Notes under the pieces: model-generated | Seen by the model: the letters and a program-made list of their open reading frames with translations, nothing else | Told to the model about the DNA's origin: nothing | Databases searched by the model: none | Assembly: GCA_022813865.1 (NCBI GenBank) | Contig: JALDZX010000035.1 | Coordinates: forward strand, 124,001-188,000 | Direction of reading: 5' to 3' | DNA length: 64,000 bases | From: Xylographa opegraphella | Lineage: Eukaryota | Shown: piece after piece, positions 3,610 to 62,181 of the stretch | How positions within the stretch are numbered: the first letter of the stretch is position 1 | Layout: each line of letters starts with the position of its first letter | Position numbers and translations under genes: made by a program

Positions 3610-5247
3610 ATGTCACAAAGATATCCTAAACGGCGACGGCTCAATAAAGGCTCCAGAGATCCTACATTCGACTCGCCATTTCCACAACTACCTGAAGATG
3701 CCTATTATGTCTCTGCAACGGAAGATGACAAGAAGAACTGGCCCGGCTGGTGTGAGATCGAGTCAGAACCTGTATATCTGCGTCGTGAATCTCCTAGGTG
3801 AACTTGCGTTGATCGATCACTAGGCTTTCTTCAATACCATGCTCAAGCGATTCGGTGTAAAGGGTGTCAAGGTGCGAGAAATTGTTTCGCTTGATGAAGA
3901 AATACTGGGGTTTATACCGTGTGTTCAATCCTGAACATTCATTGCAATACGCAAAGCTGACTCTTTGTACTAGTCGGCCAATATATGGAGTGATATTCCT
4001 CTTTAAATGGAGGGAGGATGACCCTATCAACCAGGAGCGCAGCTGTCCCAACAGTGTCTGGTTTGCAAACCAGGTGTGTAGTCACTATTATTTGGGGTTC
4101 TTGCATCGATGTGTATATGTTTGCTAACACAATGGTAGACTGTTGGTAATGCCTGTGCCAGTATCGCGCTTCTGAACATAGTCAACAACATCCCCAACTG
4201 TGATCTGGGCGATCATCTACAAAGTTTCAAAGATTTCACTACCAGCTTTACTCCTGCACTACGGGGCAATGCTATTGGGAACTTCGAGTTCATTCGACAG
4301 ATTCACAACTCCTTTGCCAGGTAAGATCATACATTTCTTGATCTCTTTTCGAATGACCATGTTCGCTCACAGTTCTTCCTTGCCACAACTACTTGATATT
4401 TGAAGAAGCTATATGATCAGTTTCGCTAATCTTTATTCAAGAAAGATGGATATGCTCAACGGAGATCTTTTAATGAAAAACGACGTTGAAGCAGCAAGGA
4501 AGCGTTCAAAAAAGCCTGCTCATAACGATCAAGGCGATGCCGCCTTCCATTTCGTAGCTTTCATTCCGGTAGATGGTACTCTTTGGAAGCTTGATGGGCT
4601 AGAAAGACAACCACATAGCCTTGGTATGATGCCTCGCCGATATCCTTTTTGTGCTTATGTTTTCTAACAATGCGGAATTCCTAGGAAACATAGAAAGTGA
4701 CGATTGGCTAAATCTGGTTAAGCCAGATCTAGAAGCTCGAATGGCTGCGTACGAGGACGGACAGATCGAATTTGCCATATTGGGTCTCGTGAAAGACCCT
4801 CTCATTAACCTCGTCCAGGACCTTGCCAGCAACATAAAAAGCATTCAAGCGTTGGAGGCACATTTGGATAAGAAGGGCACGGATTGGCGGGCTTCCACCG
4901 CCAACACAGGCATCGAAATAGAAGGAATTCCGGAGAGTACGCTGCTTGGGCCCGACATGCAATTCCAGATTGACAAAACGGCTATCGAAAGTGCAAACCT
5001 CTCGCCAGAAGTTCAGCACATGCTAAGTACCGGCTGTACCAGCGCCACCGACATCTCTGACTTCAGAAGGAAACTGGCTCTGGATCAGACGAGACTTCGA
5101 ATGGCAATCAAGGAGGAACAAGCCTTAGATTATCATGACGAAGATAGAGCGGCCGCTCGGCTCCATGATTACGGGCCGGCAGTGAAAACGTGGACTGAGT
5201 TCCTCGCCCGCAAAGGTATCCTCGGTGAACTTCTCGACCCGAAGTAA
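3610..5247 (+). CDS. Ubiquitin C-terminal hydrolase, peptidase C12 (UCH37/UCHL5-like), multi-exon
   Basis: GWCEIESEP, PIYGVIFLFKW, WFANQ-TVGNACASIALLN (catalytic Q and C), FHFVAFIP (H), WKLDGL (D). Five canonical introns. Confidence 0.9.
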
Positions 5248-5743: not shown

Positions 5744-7739
5744 ATGAGGAGGGATTCGAATACTTTCCCAAGTAAAAAAGAGGACTCAATGGTGTCTACG
5801 AGCATCTCGGATTTGCCGGGTGAGATCATCCAACAGATTCTACTTTACTGCCCTCCCGTTACTCTTGCGGCCTTCCAAAGACTCTCGCGCAAGTATAATG
5901 CGCTTGTCGAGCCGTTCCTCTGGCGGCATCAGTGTCAGACTCAGTATCGATATTGGGATCCTGAGCATCACATCAAGGAGAAGTTTAGTGGTGCCATAAA
6001 CGCTGTTGACTGGCGAAATGTCTTCGCGGAACGGCAGAGGATTGATCGCATTACATCCAGTGCTTTGGAAGGTATACTGGCAAGCCAGATGGGACGGTTG
6101 GACAAGTTTCAGCGAATAGTAGAATGTGGCTATGATGCGAAAGACTGCTTGTTGCGGCATATGGCTGCCGGCGATGATAAGGAAGATGTGCTGGCTCGGC
6201 GGTATATGCTGTTCATCGTGTATTCAATATCTTCTAATACTGGTACAGGTACTACAGTGACACAGTACTAGGCTGTTTGCACCGCATAAGGGCGATCAAA
6301 GAATGGTCATATCTTCAGGATCAGCAAGACGTATCACTCGAAAGAGCTTTGGGAGCTTATGATATGTTTGTTCTACATGATAGAGAAGGCGATTTTGATG
6401 AGGCATTTACATACTTGTTCCAGGGACAGCCATTGTTCTAATTGGATTTAGATTTCTACCCGCCTCGACGCCATTGCAGCCGACATTCGAGCCGAATATA
6501 CCGACATAAATGATCAGAGTCCCCGTCAGAAAGCTATCAGTATTGCCACTTACCTTCGCGCGAACAATCTCACAGGTATTAACGACTTGCATCAATATCA
6601 AGACCTGCAGAACAACTTTCTAGGAATTGCACTTCATGAGGAAGAGCACCCATCTTTGCCATTGATATCAACTGCGATCTATTGCAGTCTTGCCAAGAGA
6701 CTAGATCTGGAAGCTCATGCGTGCGGATTCCCCTTACATGTGTACACAATAGTCAAACCTGCACAGGGTTTTGATCTTAATGGGAACAGACTACTATCAG
6801 ACTCCAATGAGCCACAGTCCATGTACATGGATCCGTTTCGTTCACATAAAGAGATACCTGTTGAGGATCTTCAGACCCAGCTGCGCTCACTAGGCATGCC
6901 AAGGGATATTCATTCTCTTGCTCTTGCCCCAGCCTCTACTGCGGAGATTGTTCTTCGAAGCGGCCGTAATATACTAAACTCGGTTCAAGAAGCGCACCGT
7001 AGCGCCGTAGCACGTAATGGCCATGGAAGCAATAGTCACATAACACTGGTGTCCTCCTTCCCTGACATGGAAAGTGCATTCTACGGTGCTCTCTGGGCAT
7101 CATTGCTACTTGGCCTTCCACCGGATGGCGACGGTCCTGTTATATCCACCTTCGAGCCGAGGAACTTCCTGCAACCAATTGTCCAGCATTTTGAGACGCA
7201 TTTCCCTGGTGATGTCTCGCTTATCGATGAATATATTGTTCCTCTTTTCAGAGATTTCGGCGAATATGCACAGCTTCGTGAGACGGTGAGGGTGATGCGC
7301 GCTGGAGACTCAATACCGAAGCTTGTCCATGAACGTACCGGAGCTGCCTCGGAGCATGTGAAGTATCTAGTGGGACAAGTTTTCAAGCACAAGAGATACA
7401 ACTATATGGCTGTCATCATTGGCTGGGACGCCGAATGTGCCGCTCCCGAACATTGGATGTCTCAAATGCGTGTGCATGAGCTCCCTCACGGCAGGCATCA
7501 GAGCTTCTATCATGTATTGTATGCATCACCACCAAACCCAAATTTTGAAATGGTTTCTAATCATTCCGTACAGAGTCGAAGACAACAGCGTCCGCTACGT
7601 GGCGGAGGAGAATATCGAGATCGTAACCCCGGAAATACCTCACAATCTAATGCCATTAGCTGGTAAACATTTCAAGCGATGGGACAAAGAGGCGCGACGG
7701 TTTGTCAGTAATGTCAGAGACGAATATCCAGACGATTAA
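5744..7739 (+). CDS. F-box protein with transglutaminase-like middle region and C-terminal YccV/hemimethylated-DNA-binding-like domain (FBXO21-like)
   Basis: F-box ISDLPGEIIQQILLY; SLPLISTAIYCSLA.RL...GFP.HV; VGQVFKHKRYNY.AVIIGWD...HQSFYHVL/VEDNSVRYVAEENI. Three introns, the second GC-AG. Confidence 0.88.
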
Positions 7740-56100: not shown

Positions 56101-57857
56101 CGAACATGTTGAAAAGCTAGAGGAGGGTTGCGGCATGGGCGGGGGAGCCTTGTGTCGGAAGCCTGCATATGTCTTTAAGCGAGCGTGTTAGCACATCATC
56201 AACGGCGGGAATTGGCACAGCCCTACCTGCTATGGGAGCTGTGTGTTGCGCAAGTATCATTTTCTTGTAAAGTATGGGGTCATAGTCTCGATAGCTAAAG
56301 CGCAGCTACAGCGAGATCTGCCATAGTGAGCGGGGGAGACCCGAAACGAAGATGGTAACTCAGCTCTACAAAGTCCTCGACGTGTCGGTCTGGTTTCGGA
56401 CAAATATTTTTACATGTAATCAATTCCCGGGGGTGTGTATGCGAAGTGACGTGTAAAGACAAACGAGCAAAGCACGATTGAATAGGTTTAATACATCCTC
56501 TCATAACCGCAGCCTCCCCACGGTCAGCCAGCTCTGGTGCAGAATCATCGTCTTCAACTGTCTGATAGAAGCACGAGAGATCTCGCCCTCGGACAAGCGA
56601 AGGTGATCTAGGGCCTGGACCACACAACCTCATCGCGACAGCAACTCTGAGAGCTATTCACACGTGAGGTGTCCACGTTGAAACGCGTCACAGGTACTGA
56701 GCTTAGATTCTTTCTTATACATGGACCAAATCATCTCTCAACTCGGCTCAGTTGCCGCGGTGCTACAGGAAACCAATCTGCCTTAATTTCCTTCACGTCA
56801 ACGTCAACACCTTCCTCTTTCTTCCTACATCCTGTCCTCAAACCTGCGTCCCACATCTGCCCTCACCTTCATCCACCCTGTTTGACTTCCTTCGGTCCTT
56901 CTTCATTGACCTCATCCTCTATCCTCAGTCTTACCAGGTGCCTTCGTCAGTGTGGCCTCATTAATACCCTTGTCTGATCGTCAACAGCGACGAGGGTGTC
57001 GTGGTCGCCTCATCATTGTACGTACTTGAACCTCAATTTGATGATCGCGACACGGTCTGGCTTCTCTCAACCAGCGATCACAATCCTTCATCCGGTTATC
57101 AGATTCGACCTAGCAAGCTCAATCAAACGCGCAACAATTGGCAAACTGATTCTCTGTTCCTAAGTATCTCGACGATAACCTCAAGGTGAGTGGCCGCATT
57201 TGGATCAACATCACCACAAGACTTCGCCTTTCTCTCTACCTTCTCCTCTTCCTTTCCTTATACATCGGTCGATCATTCCTTCCTTCGTCTTGTCTTCCTG
57301 TATCTTCATCCAAGCACAAACACTCTACAAGCACAACTCTGCAAATTTCTTCACAACATCAACTGGTCTGTCCTCGTCCTGACCGTCAACCTTACGTACC
57401 AGTCCTTTTCATGTCCTTGTACTCGACTGGCTGTCATTTTCTGTTTCGGTTACTCTCTTCACATTATCTTCAACGATTTAGTACGTTTTCCCAAAAGGCT
57501 CGCATTTTGATTAGAAAACGGTAAAGTGGTTAAATATTTCGCGATATACGATTGTCATAGTTCTTAATCCTTGCTGCAGTTCCGCGATAAACGCATTTTC
57601 CGAATCAATTTGCTGCTAAAATTGCTTTCTGGCTTCTTCATATTCTGGTCTTTCATCTTCGCATGAGCCACTCCTGTCGAGAACGGACTAGCACATCACA
57701 CTTGTGGCCCGCTCCTGCTCCTTCGACCAAACAATGTACTTGAATATGCTTCCCATAGAAAGGCTTCATAACCACTTCTTCGTAGTCGTCTACCGGGGGT
57801 AAACATACCGCTAACCTTGTTCGTAATTAGGTCAAGGTCGACACATATTTCTTTAAA

Positions 57858-60800
57858 ATGCCGGGAGCTGTAAAGAAGCGCGAAGCGCAGGCACGAGAGT
57901 CTGTTCGTCCCCAGCGGACAGACAATACGGCATCCCGTTTAGATGCCCCCGAGATTGCCCGAATGGATGGCCCCACAGGATCTTCAGCCGATGATGACGA
58001 TCGTGGACGACGTATGTCGAATGCTCCTGGATCTCGGGCTGGCAGCGCTGTCCGCGCCGGAAGTGCTGCACGACCAATGCTTTTCGACCCGGCGAGGAAG
58101 CCTCCCCTCAATAAGAACATCGACTACCCAGCGAATGTTTACAACATGTTCAGCCAGGTAAGCGGACGCATTTCCATCGGCTTGTGGACGGCCTGCATGT
58201 GATTGTCGTGCCCAAGTATTCACTCGTCCCCAATCTTGCGTGTATTCGAATAGCACCTCGGGAAACCATTGAATGGCGTTTTAAAGGAGTGAATTTGTGC
58301 ACCCCTCTTATTGATGGGATGTTTGCTCGACCTATTCACCATGTGGCCATTGTGGGACGGACGAGCAATCGCTGTTCACAAAACCACATTCTTCTTTCCT
58401 TCGAACTGTTCCTTCTACATCTTCCTTCTACACGCCGAACATCTTTCTATTCTGCTTCCGATGTCTCTTAGGAACTTTGAACCTTGAGACGCGTCTGGTC
58501 AGTACATTCGCTGGCTGGTGTTTGTTTCTTCGTCTGTGCTGTGCCTAGGTGTCTATCTTCCTTGAAAGTAAAGTACCATCCTTTGAGAGATTCCTTAAGG
58601 TTTCCCCATCATCACGGCACTATCTACCATTAGCTAAAATTATTCCTATCATTAACCCATCTTGTCTTCACTATGGAGGACAGTGTCCTCGCAAAAGAGG
58701 CTAAAATCTCCGCGAGCATGTTCCTTGATAACCCTAAGGATCCGTTGGAAGAGGAAGCCATTGAAGCAGCCAAAAAAATGCCACCCGACCCTAATCCAGT
58801 GAAATTTCGTCACCTCAATGTGGATGCTGACACTCATCAGTACGATCTTCCTACAGAATGTGCCTCTCGACCTGGCTTCAATACCTCAGGACAGGGAGTA
58901 TTGGTCAATATCAATTCCTACGCTGTTGTGAAGTTCCCCGATAAGGTCATCTACCAGTATGATGTAAGTTATTCATCTATTGATTCATTTAACTCGAGCA
59001 TTGCTATGTATGTTTTCATTCACAGACTTATCAATGTCATATCCTTGAACTACCACCATCATCCCTAGTTTGGAGGAACTACATTTTATCCATCCTCAAA
59101 AGCCTTGACTGACGAGTTTTCTTTTTCAAGGTCTTGATCGGTTCTGGTGTCGAAAAGCGTGGTCTCGTCACGAAGGTGTGGAATTCGAAAGCTGTCCAAA
59201 AAGCGATTGGTAATGGATGGGTATTTGATGGCAACCGCCTGGCCTGGTATGTGTATCTCTGTTTTTTGCTGGACACATAGTACTCATGATATGTCCAGGA
59301 GCATGGATGCAATTCCTAACCGTCAGTTCACCGTAGACTTAGATGAGGAGCAGTGCACCCCGTCGAGACCTGGACGGTTGAATAGCCACAAGGTCCAGAT
59401 TCGTCCTTCAACAAAAATCAATCTTGCTTCTATCCAGGCCTACCTTGATCGTAAAATGAGCATGGACAATTCAGTGCTCCAAGCTATTGGTATGGTTGAT
59501 GCTGCTTGTTTCTTTCGTCTCAATGCAATTATGCTAACTTACTTAAGATTTCCTTGATCACCTCATGCGTGTGACTCCATCTAAGAACATGTACTCTCTC
59601 AAGCGGTCCTTCTTTGATCCAAAGATGGTGAAGCGTGAGAGACTTGGTGGAGGTGTCGAAGCGATGAAGGGAGTCTACCAGAGTATTCGTATTGCTCATG
59701 TATAATCCCGCTATACACTCTTTCGAGCAATGGCTCTTGGCTAACATTATGTAGGGTAGTCGTCTTGTGGTGAATGTTGATGTCTCCAACTGTGTTTTCT
59801 ATGGCGACTACCCAATGGAGATGATGGCGACTCAAGTCACGGGCAGTGCCAATGCGTTGATATGTGGAGAGATGTCAAAGAAAGTCAAACCAACTTTTCG
59901 GGAAGCGGAGAAGGAATCTCTTACCTTCTTGAAGCTTAAAAAATTGAAGAAGATTAGATTCCGTGTTCGATACCGTGGTGCTTCAGAGAGTACGTCCTCA
60001 TACACTTTCCGGTGATTCTGGCTGACCACTCTCGTATAGAGGTATTGAAGCAAGTGCACATGGTGAAAGAATTCTCGCAAGAGAATTGTTATAACTGGTT
60101 CTTCAACCAAAAGGATAAGGAGACTGGGGTTGAGAAGAGGACGTCAATCTTCGATTACTTCATGGAGAAATACAACATCCATCTCTCGCACCCTACCATG
60201 TGTGTCGTGGAAACAATGAAAAGGGGTATAGCATTCCCTATGGAGGTTTGCTATGTCGAACCGGGTCAAAAATACCCATACAAGATTGATGCTGTCCAGG
60301 TCAGTCATCTCAACGATATTTATGGATCTAACTAACAAGCCCGTGCAGACTGCTTCGATGATAAAGTTTGCTGTCACGAGACCGAAAGAGCGTCGAGAGG
60401 GTATTGAAGGCGGTCTTGCGCTCCTAAACTGGGAAAATGATCCTTATATCAAAAATTATGGTCTCAAGATATCGAAAGACATGTTAGAGACCCAAGCACG
60501 TCTGCTAGCCCCTCCAATTGTTCAATTTGCCAAGACGCAGCAGAAGCCTGGACTTTCTGGTCGTTGGCGTCTCGATGGGCAACAGTTTCTGCTTCCTAAC
60601 AAGAATGATCTTATTCATTGGGGTGTATGCATTATCAACTCCGTGGGGTATGTCCAACAGTCTTATCTCGGATGTGATTGATCTTATGCTAACAGCCCGC
60701 CAGTCGAGACCGCCTTGATAAAGCCGCAGCATCGACCTTCATACGTACGTTTGTTAATACTTACAAAGGCCATGGAGGCAAAGTTTCCAATGCGAATCCT

Positions 60801-62181
60801 CCTATCATGGAAGGTCCCGTAGATGAAGCTAAGTGCGTGACTGACCTTTTCAACGAGATCGTGGCCAAAACCGGAGGTGGAAAGCCTCAAATGATGGTCT
60901 TCTTGTTGGCTGGGAAGGATTCCCTATGTTATGAACGAATCAAGAGGTCTTGTGATTGCCGCTACGGAGTTGTTTCACAGTGCATGCAGAATGCCCACGT
61001 CAAGAGAGGACAAGGGCAGTACATTTCTAACGTTTTAATGAAATTCAATGCCAAGCTCGGTGGTACAACGAGCAAAGTCGCAGGAGTGAGTAGAGCTCTT
61101 GCTCCGTTGCTCGAGACAGATACTAACTCCTTTAGAAACCACCTGGAGGTCATTTCAAAATTCCGACCATGATCGTTGGTGCTGATGTCTCCCATGCTTC
61201 TCCCGGTAGTCTACAGCCTTCAATGGCAGCGCTGACCTGTTCCATGGACAAAACGTGCTGTCGATATGCTGCCGCATGCGAGTCCAACGGTCATCGTGTC
61301 GAGATGGTCACCCAGTTCAATCTCGAGGACATGCTTACCCCACTGTTCCGCCAGTGGATGTCCGAAGTCGGAATGGGACGTATGCCTCAACAGTTCTTCT
61401 ATTTCCGCGACGGTGTCTCTGAAGGCCAATACCAGCATGTGATCCAACAAGAAGTGAAACATATCAAGCGCATTTGGCGTACGCTTGATGAATCTAACAA
61501 ATATGTGAACTACGAGAAGGTTAGTTGGGGACCAATAGTGGTCATCTCACAGTACTGATGAGTCCAGATCAAATTTACTGTGATTGTCGCCTCGAAGCGC
61601 CATCACATCCGCTTTTTCCCTAAAGAACGTAGTCCTGCAGCTGACAAGAATTTGAATCCATGTCCTGGTGTCCTGGTCGAGAAAGACGTTACGCATCCAT
61701 TCGAGTATGATTTCTACCTTAATTCGCACTCCGCTATTCAAGGAACTGCTCGCCCTACACATTATCATGTCTTGATGGACGAATCCAAGTTTCCACCAAA
61801 TGAGTTGCAGAACATGATCTATGAACACTGCTATCAGTACATGCGTTCCACCACTCCTGTGTCCCTCTGTACGAACCTTATGCCCTAAATGATTTGGTAC
61901 TTGCTGACTTGTGATCAGTCCCCGCTGTGTACTATGCACACTTGGCATCCAAGCGCGCCGTGTCGCATGAGAATAGACCCGCTAGTTCCGGAGCGCATCA
62001 GTTCAACGAGGAACAACAGCGTCTTGAGCTCATAAAGCTCAAGGAAGAGGCCGATCGTGAGGGTAAGAAACTGTCGAAGACCAATTCCGAGAAGCTTAAC
62101 CGCTTTACTGAGGCAGAGTCTCGTCCACTGATAAAGATGAAGAATGATACCGGTATCATGTGGGGTATGTGGTACATCTAG
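57858..62181 (+). CDS. Argonaute (N-PAZ-MID-PIWI), probably SMS-2/meiotic-silencing-like clade; 11 introns in the CDS
   Basis: RPGFN..G....NINSY, FDGNRLAW, KGVYQSIR, FPMEVC, YERIKRSCDCRYGVVSQC, NVLMKFNAKLGG, GADVSH, RVEM, FRDGVSEGQ, QGTARPTHYHVL, YYAHLA, MWYI. Clade call is from recalled motif differences versus QDE-2 (GIDVTH/MFYI), not from a tree. Confidence 0.97.

Follow-up and report, generated by a model that had tools for sequence, protein, structure and literature searches.

The 64,000-nucleotide stretch of the Xylographa opegraphella genome analysed here (contig JALDZX010000035.1; hereafter the window, from whose first letter all positions are counted, on the forward strand unless stated) carries an Argonaute gene with two candidate first coding exons, the second of which lies inside the intron that follows the first. 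The translation of 58673–58963 is 100% identical to P0001, a 957-amino acid protein listed by NCBI as ‘hypothetical protein MMC26_005123 [Xylographa opegraphella]’, and this deposited model begins at the ATG within the intron, at 58673. Its Pfam matches are Piwi (2.5e-81), ArgoN (1.1e-22), ArgoL1 (5.8e-17), ArgoL2 (1.1e-13), PAZ (2.6e-13) and ArgoMid (1.9e-6), every one above the curated cut-off and arranged in the expected order ArgoN-L1-PAZ-L2-MID-PIWI. Residues D659 (in GADVSH), E698, D734 (RDGVSEGQ) and H878 (YYAHL) are invariant in 32 of 32 aligned orthologues, and we take these columns, going by their motifs, to be the slicer D-E-D-H tetrad of the PIWI domain. The homologue search gave 312 proteins with E ≤ 0.001; the top 120 are without exception Piwi/PAZ proteins of Pezizomycotina, and their tree tracks taxonomy. 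Several are labelled QDE-2-like by their source (for example ‘related to argonaute like post-transcriptional gene silencing protein QDE-2’), and the name used here comes partly from such labels. Judged by its sequence relatives, the locus is a QDE-2-type Argonaute gene of the fungal AGO clade.

The exon common to both forms, exon 2 (58841–58963), begins YDLPTECASRPGFN, takes in the first part of the N-terminal region conserved among Argonautes (YDLPTECASRPGFNTSGQG...) and is followed by GTAAGT. Ten further exons and the stop codon (58964–62181) complete an exact exon map that reproduces P0001. Their ten introns measure 167, 52, 58, 55, 50, 49, 56, 50, 48 and 50 nucleotides (nt), in keeping with an initial annotation of this DNA that had put most of them at about 50–60 nt; apart from the one of 167 nt they span 48–58 nt. 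Each has a CTRAY-like branch site 9–16 nt from its acceptor. Upstream of exon 2 lies the distal first coding exon, exon 1A (57858–58157, 100 codons), which starts with an ATG at 57858–57860, stays open to 58157 and meets a GTAAGC donor from 58158. The intron between them, intron 1 of the A isoform (58158–58840), has a branch-point-like GCTGAC at 58826–58831 and a CAG acceptor at 58838–58840. Exon 1A and exon 2 both meet the junction in phase 0, and the spacing from branch site to acceptor, GCTGAC(9 nt)CAG, is in line with that of the other introns of the gene. At 683 nt, intron 1 is a length outlier among them.

The last 168 nt of intron 1 (58673–58840) form a second ATG-initiated segment of 56 codons, exon 1B or frame B, which is contiguous and in frame with exon 2 and supplies the start of P0001. 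Frame B lies wholly inside the intron of exon 1A, so that the two 5′ segments, both in frame with exon 2, are mutually exclusive. The initial annotation had described this arrangement, and its coordinates for exon 1A, the phase-0 splice to 58841, the 683-nt intron and the frame opening at 58673 all proved exact. It had also described the two N-termini as basic and acidic, respectively, and the counts agree: the exon 1A peptide has 17 K/R and 12 D/E and is net basic, and the frame B peptide has 7 K/R and 12 D/E and is net acidic. Pfam matched no family to either peptide.

Exon 1A clearly has the hallmarks of a genuine, conserved Argonaute exon. The encoded peptide combines an N-terminal MPGAVKKR motif, an RG-containing low-complexity region and a conserved C-terminal FDPARKPPLNKNIDYPANVYNMFSQ; its conserved parts are an MxGAxKKR head and a DPAR...N(K/R)NxDxPxNxYN tail. 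When the N-termini of 50 A-type orthologues, with the window excluded, were made into a profile, it matched the open reading frame (ORF) piece at 57831–58199 end to end (E = 2e-8), the sole significant match among 92 ORF pieces from both strands of 56500–59000. A word-based search with the 100-residue peptide found no relatives, whereas exhaustive phmmer over 1.84 billion representatives did, returning 11 proteins at E ≤ 0.001. The ten non-self matches are 108–276 amino acids long and 38–63% identical to the query. In nine of them the alignment reaches the final residue of exon 1A and V-S follows, and the tenth stops exactly there. Because V-S is a CAG|GTAAGY donor read through at the same residue in nine of ten relatives, the position of the exon 1A donor, SQ|GT, is conserved.

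The eleventh phmmer match, P0122 (112 amino acids), is exon 1A itself (100/100 residues identical) followed by 12 residues, HLGKPLNGVLKE. These map to 58254–58289, after AATAG and before a TGA, and make up a terminal mini-exon with its stop codon (58254–58292) behind a 96-nt intron. Since the tail is absent from the ORFs of all ten relatives, we judge it, and with it the closure of exon 1A as a separate 112-amino acid gene, to be an annotation artefact. The deposited models could be taken to mean that only the B form is made in X. opegraphella and that exon 1A is a decaying relic of an ancestral start or a small gene of its own: P0001 starts at 58673, and P0122 gives exon 1A its own mini-exon and stop. 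Against this, exon 1A is intact over 100 codons and matches the family profile end to end; it retains its ATG, the conserved tail and a GTAAGC donor in phase with exon 2; and the closing tail of P0122 occurs in 0 of 10 relatives. We consider this explanation very unlikely.

The joined form is found elsewhere. In 54 of the 117 usable orthologues (121 fetched proteins minus P0001 itself, the ORF fragment P0002 and the N-truncated P0005 and P0083) an A-type extension runs directly into exon-2 residues, as in ...NRNIDLPGTAYNLDRQ|YEVP of Lasallia. Six metagenome loci (L008, L009, L013, L016, L023 and L033) hold A and exon 2 in one uninterrupted ORF, and in several of these the entire gene body is intronless. 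We read them as natural intron-loss copies, consistent with loss through a spliced A-type messenger RNA. On these comparisons the join of exon 1A to exon 2 is well supported, and it is very probable that exon 1A is part of the Argonaute gene.

The remaining orthologues are dominated by a different beginning. Alongside the 54 A-type N-termini there are 49 B-type, six that hold A and then B in one read-through protein, and eight that are truncated. B-type here denotes any non-A extension contiguous with exon 2; it is a heterogeneous class with doubtful rows such as P0011, P0034, P0060 and P0120. In a FastTree phylogeny of the protein body (118 rows) the clades agree with taxonomy, and within them the two labels are intermingled, with 23 changes for A and 27 for B. 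Close sisters carry opposite labels: Blastenia and Loekoesia, Acephala and Phialocephala, Oculimacula and Rhynchosporium, Chaenotheca and Sclerophora. Because the labels are mixed within taxonomic clades and differ between sisters, the two types are best taken as alternative models of one orthologue, and the idea that A and B are paralogues was ruled out. One metagenome locus, L007, contains both at once: its B peptide matches that of P0098, a B-type protein, and its A exon lies ahead of exon 2 at a distance of 551 nt.

Some sequence likeness among B peptides is visible. Sarea, Pleopsidium/L020, Thelocarpon, several Leotiomycetes and L036/L038/L061 have in common a start of the form M-E-x-x-x-[FY]-R some 17 codons ahead of the junction, and an in-register FRH[LY]N is shared with Sarea, Pleopsidium and L020, which is only suggestive. 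One B-type protein, P0114 of Trichophyton benhamiae, is labelled ‘TPA_exp’, and PMC5069957 describes an RNA-seq-based reannotation of that species. We also rejected the notion that the short-contig ‘lgn’ proteins are transcripts, as metagenome loci with an intronless gene body give full-length ORF proteins from genomic DNA.

For the window itself, the most direct comparison comes from P0002, an ORF call from a close relative that reads through its own intron and so allows the region to be compared piece by piece. Frame B is identical at 45 of 56 residues (80%), with no insertion or deletion and with the ATG kept. This is on par with exon 2, where 33 of 41 residues (80%) agree. The flanking intron, pseudo-translated, shares 27 of 60 and 35 of 57 residues (62 of 117 in total, ~53%), with a frameshift and a stop codon in the window; the 35/57 piece shows that the CT-rich stretch of intron 1 is alignable in this relative. 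As the identity of B equals that of exon 2 and the intron upstream is lower, all 168 nt of B, and not only the last 30, appear to be constrained like an exon. The initial annotation had made conservation of the 56-codon frame in relatives one of the points on which its idea would stand or fall, and at this distance the frame is conserved.

At the DNA level, an exon-2 profile found the equivalent stretch in metagenome loci (55 domain matches), from which the introns upstream of exon 2 could be compared. We counted a B frame as present where an ATG-initiated ORF of at least 17 codons runs in frame into exon 2. Eleven distinct loci have an intron longer than 300 nt (367–815 nt): the window, L001, L005, L006, L007, L015, L019, L020 (= L035), L021, L028 (= L029) and L034. 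Nine of these have a B frame, against none of the four distinct loci (L004, L018, L024 and L030) in which the intron is no longer than 173 nt. Of the 13 B starts examined, every one has a purine at −3 (A in 11, G in two) and ten have G at +4; the start at 58673, with A at −3 and G at +4, conforms. Twelve of the 13 are preceded by ATG-free leaders of 83–550 nt. In another pair of loci, L038 and L061, B is 73–80% identical, the intron mostly 20–60% and the exon bins mostly 76–93% (two bins at 53–60%). Distances from branch site to acceptor across loci are 10, 13 or 16 nt, all of which preserve the frame, and this points weakly, through about three independent changes, to coding constraint. The same layout recurs at orthologous loci of several fungal classes of Pezizomycotina, as a probable intron-embedded alternative start. 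Of the two N-termini, A is clearly conserved, and B is conserved in P0002 and in L038/L061 and not in the pair L005/L006. Set against the 38–63% identity of A, the Circinaria B peptide indicates that B is the faster evolving of the two.

Individual loci depart from this pattern in their own ways. L005 keeps an ATG-initiated B of 26 codons (4680–4805), and its close relative L006 has a 70-codon open frame without an ATG (6827–7036), a pattern that may indicate loss of B in that lineage. In L019 (7001–7036) FRHFDTKTNIVK stands ahead of exon 2 with no ATG and with a TAG directly upstream; this TAG could act as an alternative acceptor, which would add these 12 residues to the A form. Between L038 and L061 an island of 63–80% identity lies 270–300 nt upstream of exon 2, ahead of the B start and within otherwise poorly conserved intron, and could be a promoter element. 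At nearly every locus (58826–58840 in the window, and L001, L005–L007, L019–L021, L028, L034, L036 and L061) the CTRAC branch site reads as T/A and then D/N in the B frame; in frame +1 it gives TGA or TAA and closes that frame.

Could both peptides stand in a single protein? Exon 1A might be spliced to an acceptor upstream of B, the AG of a TAG at 58632–58633, placing 13 linker residues and then B after A. Frame B is open from 58634, a join of 58157 to 58634 would keep phase 0, A followed by B does occur in six database proteins from other species, and the TAG directly before FRHFD in L019 could serve as such an acceptor. Against this, the stop codon at this site in the window aligns with a leucine in P0002, and the putative acceptor AG is therefore probably not conserved; LKLFLSLTHLVFT, the linker, is a hydrophobic stretch whose conservation (~56%) is as low as that of the remaining intron; the six models with both peptides read through intron-like sequence; and the intronless loci join A straight to exon 2. 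A combined protein seems to us highly improbable.

Another alternative deserves more weight, namely that only the A isoform is made, that the 56-codon frame is an untranslated by-product of splice constraint and stop-poor, CT-rich sequence, and that gene predictors fail on a 683-nt intron amid introns of ~50 nt. Several observations favour it and tell against a functional B start. The last four to six codons of B coincide with the branch site and acceptor (in frame, xCT-RAC ... CAG), which explains the conserved T/A-D/N...Q tail of the peptide. The control frame +2 also contains an ATG-initiated ORF of at least 17 codons in 3 of the 11 long-intron loci and is often open (median ~32 codons), stop codons being scarce in CT-rich sequence; the branch site closes frame +1 in every case. 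Two of the 11 long-intron loci lack a B start, L006 being open for 70 codons with no ATG and L019 having a stop directly before FRHFD, and when L005 is compared with L006 the conservation of B does not exceed that of the remaining intron. A profile of all 49 B tails gave no match to the window. A 24-row version, which leaves out Chaetothyriales, Onygenales and Lecanoromycetidae and whose rows were picked post hoc, after the sequences had been seen, reached E = 0.029, no better than a spurious antisense match at E = 0.022; cross-class homology of B is thus not significant, and conservation of the frame, as looked for in the initial annotation, holds in the one close relative compared and gives a mixed picture at greater distances. 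The depletion of ATGs in the leaders, which speaks for B, is modest: 150-nt leaders contain 11 against 18.9 expected, a number as low in 52 of 2000 shuffles. AlphaFold2 (AF2), run on P0001 with a 32-row alignment, gave a mean predicted local distance difference test (pLDDT) score of 81.3 and a predicted template modelling (pTM) score of 0.80, and within B residues 1–29 and 33–55 fall below a pLDDT of 50. The peptide is predicted to be disordered and no structural role can be assigned to it. Finally, many of the B-type proteins were produced by gene prediction or plain ORF calling, which takes the longest ATG-initiated ORF when the gene body is intronless, and for that reason they are not independent evidence of expression; P0122 demonstrates that deposited models mishandle this very locus.

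What an A-only gene does not readily explain is why the full 168 nt of B, rather than the splice signals at its end, are conserved like exon 2 in P0002 without a single indel, when the intron immediately upstream shows a frameshift, a stop and ~53% pseudo-identity. It also leaves aside the purine at −3 in all 13 B starts with their long, ATG-free leaders, the frame-preserving branch-site spacings, and the presence of B in nine of eleven long introns against none of four short ones, which we read as the intron being long only where B exists. We therefore regard the production of isoform A alone as unlikely, if far from negligible, and frame B as probably used as a coding start.

The explanation we favour, with a probability of roughly 60%, is a single gene with two mutually exclusive first coding exons, both of which are used. 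Isoform A would be transcribed from upstream of 57858, with exon 1A spliced over 683 nt from 58157 to 58841. A CT-rich tract at 57200–57335 is a possible distal core-promoter or 5′ untranslated region (UTR); pyrimidines make up 73.9% of 57225–57335, and 77% and 68% of the 60-nt bins at 57200 and 57260. Transcription of isoform B would start inside intron 1, downstream of a second such tract, placed by the initial annotation at ~58390–58470 and located here at 58385–58470, where pyrimidines make up 75.6% of the sequence (50.6% in the window as a whole); this is a candidate internal core-promoter element. From 58464 to 58672 runs an ATG-free stretch of 209 nt, a candidate 5′ UTR of the B transcript, the sole ATG in 58401–58672 being at 58461. 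Because such transcripts would lack the exon 1A donor, they would remain unspliced at intron 1 and be translated from the ATG at 58673, placing an acidic, probably disordered 56-residue peptide ahead of the same exon 2. The outcome would be one slicer body with or without the conserved N-terminal extension. Among sequencing runs searched for the locus, three matched, all of DNA and one of them probably the source, and none of RNA; reads collected at 80% likeness gave only the source contig and a 37-nt fragment from one other run, with no splice joints and no variants. We infer the internal promoter and the translation of B from conservation and from sequence signals, namely the CT-rich tract, the context of the start codon and the leader free of ATGs. 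Of the proposal that alternative promoters give this Argonaute two N-termini, the structural part, two exclusive coding 5′ ends that recur in several fungal classes, is borne out, and the internal promoter keeps the status of a candidate.

A wider reading can be offered tentatively, at somewhat less than even odds. Outside Sordariomycetes, the QDE-2-type Argonaute of most Pezizomycotina may be encoded by an ancient gene with two promoters: a distal one, giving a form with a conserved, disordered extension (KKR head, RG stretch, DPAR...NRNxDLPxxAYN tail), and an intronic one, giving a form with a short, fast-evolving peptide in its place. The two would form a conserved switch that yields functionally different silencing effectors, for example with different localisation or partners, and the roughly half-and-half split among deposited models would reflect a real isoform pair rather than prediction noise. 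That the KKR head, RG stretch and conserved tail of A act in localisation, methylation or partner binding is speculation, and so is the suggestion of the initial annotation that the two forms may serve vegetative and meiotic silencing or different compartments.

The firm result from these comparisons is a correction of the annotation: exon 1A belongs to the Argonaute. With the join of exon 1A to exon 2 well supported by comparison, the deposited description as a 112-amino acid gene next to a 957-amino acid Argonaute is incomplete. Since about half of the Pezizomycotina Argonaute models show each N-terminus, comparative studies of fungal RNA interference (RNAi) that rely on public models are likely to be comparing non-equivalent isoforms. 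If both starts are indeed used, fungi regulate their main small interfering RNA (siRNA) effector, in a way that has been overlooked, by including or omitting a conserved N-terminal extension. Extensions of this sort govern where plant and animal Argonautes localise, how they are modified and which partners they choose.

Elsewhere in the gene, intron 2 (58964–59130), at 167 nt, is three times the length of the nine other short introns. An Rfam scan of 57000–59300 gave one sub-threshold match only, to a bacterial small RNA on the minus strand inside this intron (58977–59070). It scores 26 bits where the gathering score is 80 (E = 0.19), and we judge it to be due to chance.

The gene has the same ArgoN-L1-PAZ-L2-MID-PIWI set as the QDE-2-type Argonautes of filamentous ascomycetes, for which Neurospora crassa QDE-2 is the type. 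Orthologues of this type are 43–71% identical to it in the alignment, and exon 1A is homologous to the conserved extension of low complexity at their N-terminus. In this gene, as in many Lecanoromycetes, Eurotiomycetes and Leotiomycetes, the intron that follows this extension is long and holds a second ATG start. At the Sordariomycetes-like loci L024 and L030 (attributed by motif) it is 59–81 nt long and has no B. A full-text literature search turned up no fungal Argonaute described with two N-termini. Alternative start usage as such is familiar in fungi. The sections of a review that deal with it (PMC9604717) describe downstream starts giving a different or shorter N-terminus, often with altered localisation or function, as for SUC2, Zeb2L/S and the Cryptococcus superoxide dismutase; the words ‘argonaute’ and ‘RNAi’ do not occur in this review. 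Unlike the starts described there, the second Argonaute start sits in an intron and adds coding sequence of its own.

Among plant Argonautes, the N-terminal extension (NTE) of Arabidopsis AGO1 is unstructured, essential for function, and a hub for PRMT5 interaction and modifications, according to the relevant passages of PMC9994745 and PMC11317149. Exon 1A resembles it in being of low complexity with RG dipeptides; arginine methylation of exon 1A is speculative. The AGO1 NTE differs in that it shares no sequence homology with exon 1A and that those passages describe no alternative start for it.

A parallel is found in Drosophila Ago2, for which the parts of PMC3002974 concerned with isoforms report a short form, made from an alternative transcript, that lacks the glutamine-rich N-terminal repeats. 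There too, one Argonaute locus gives an alternative transcript with the same body minus a long low-complexity N-terminal domain. The fly protein, however, is an animal siRNA Argonaute with an unrelated N-terminus, and its transcript has been observed, whereas the fungal one is deduced from the genome; the fungal short form would, moreover, gain a 56-residue acidic peptide of its own in place of a plain truncation. Argonaute isoforms are also on record for human AGO1 (AGO1-V2, PMC11270204) and for AGO2 of mouse oocytes (PMC7430632).

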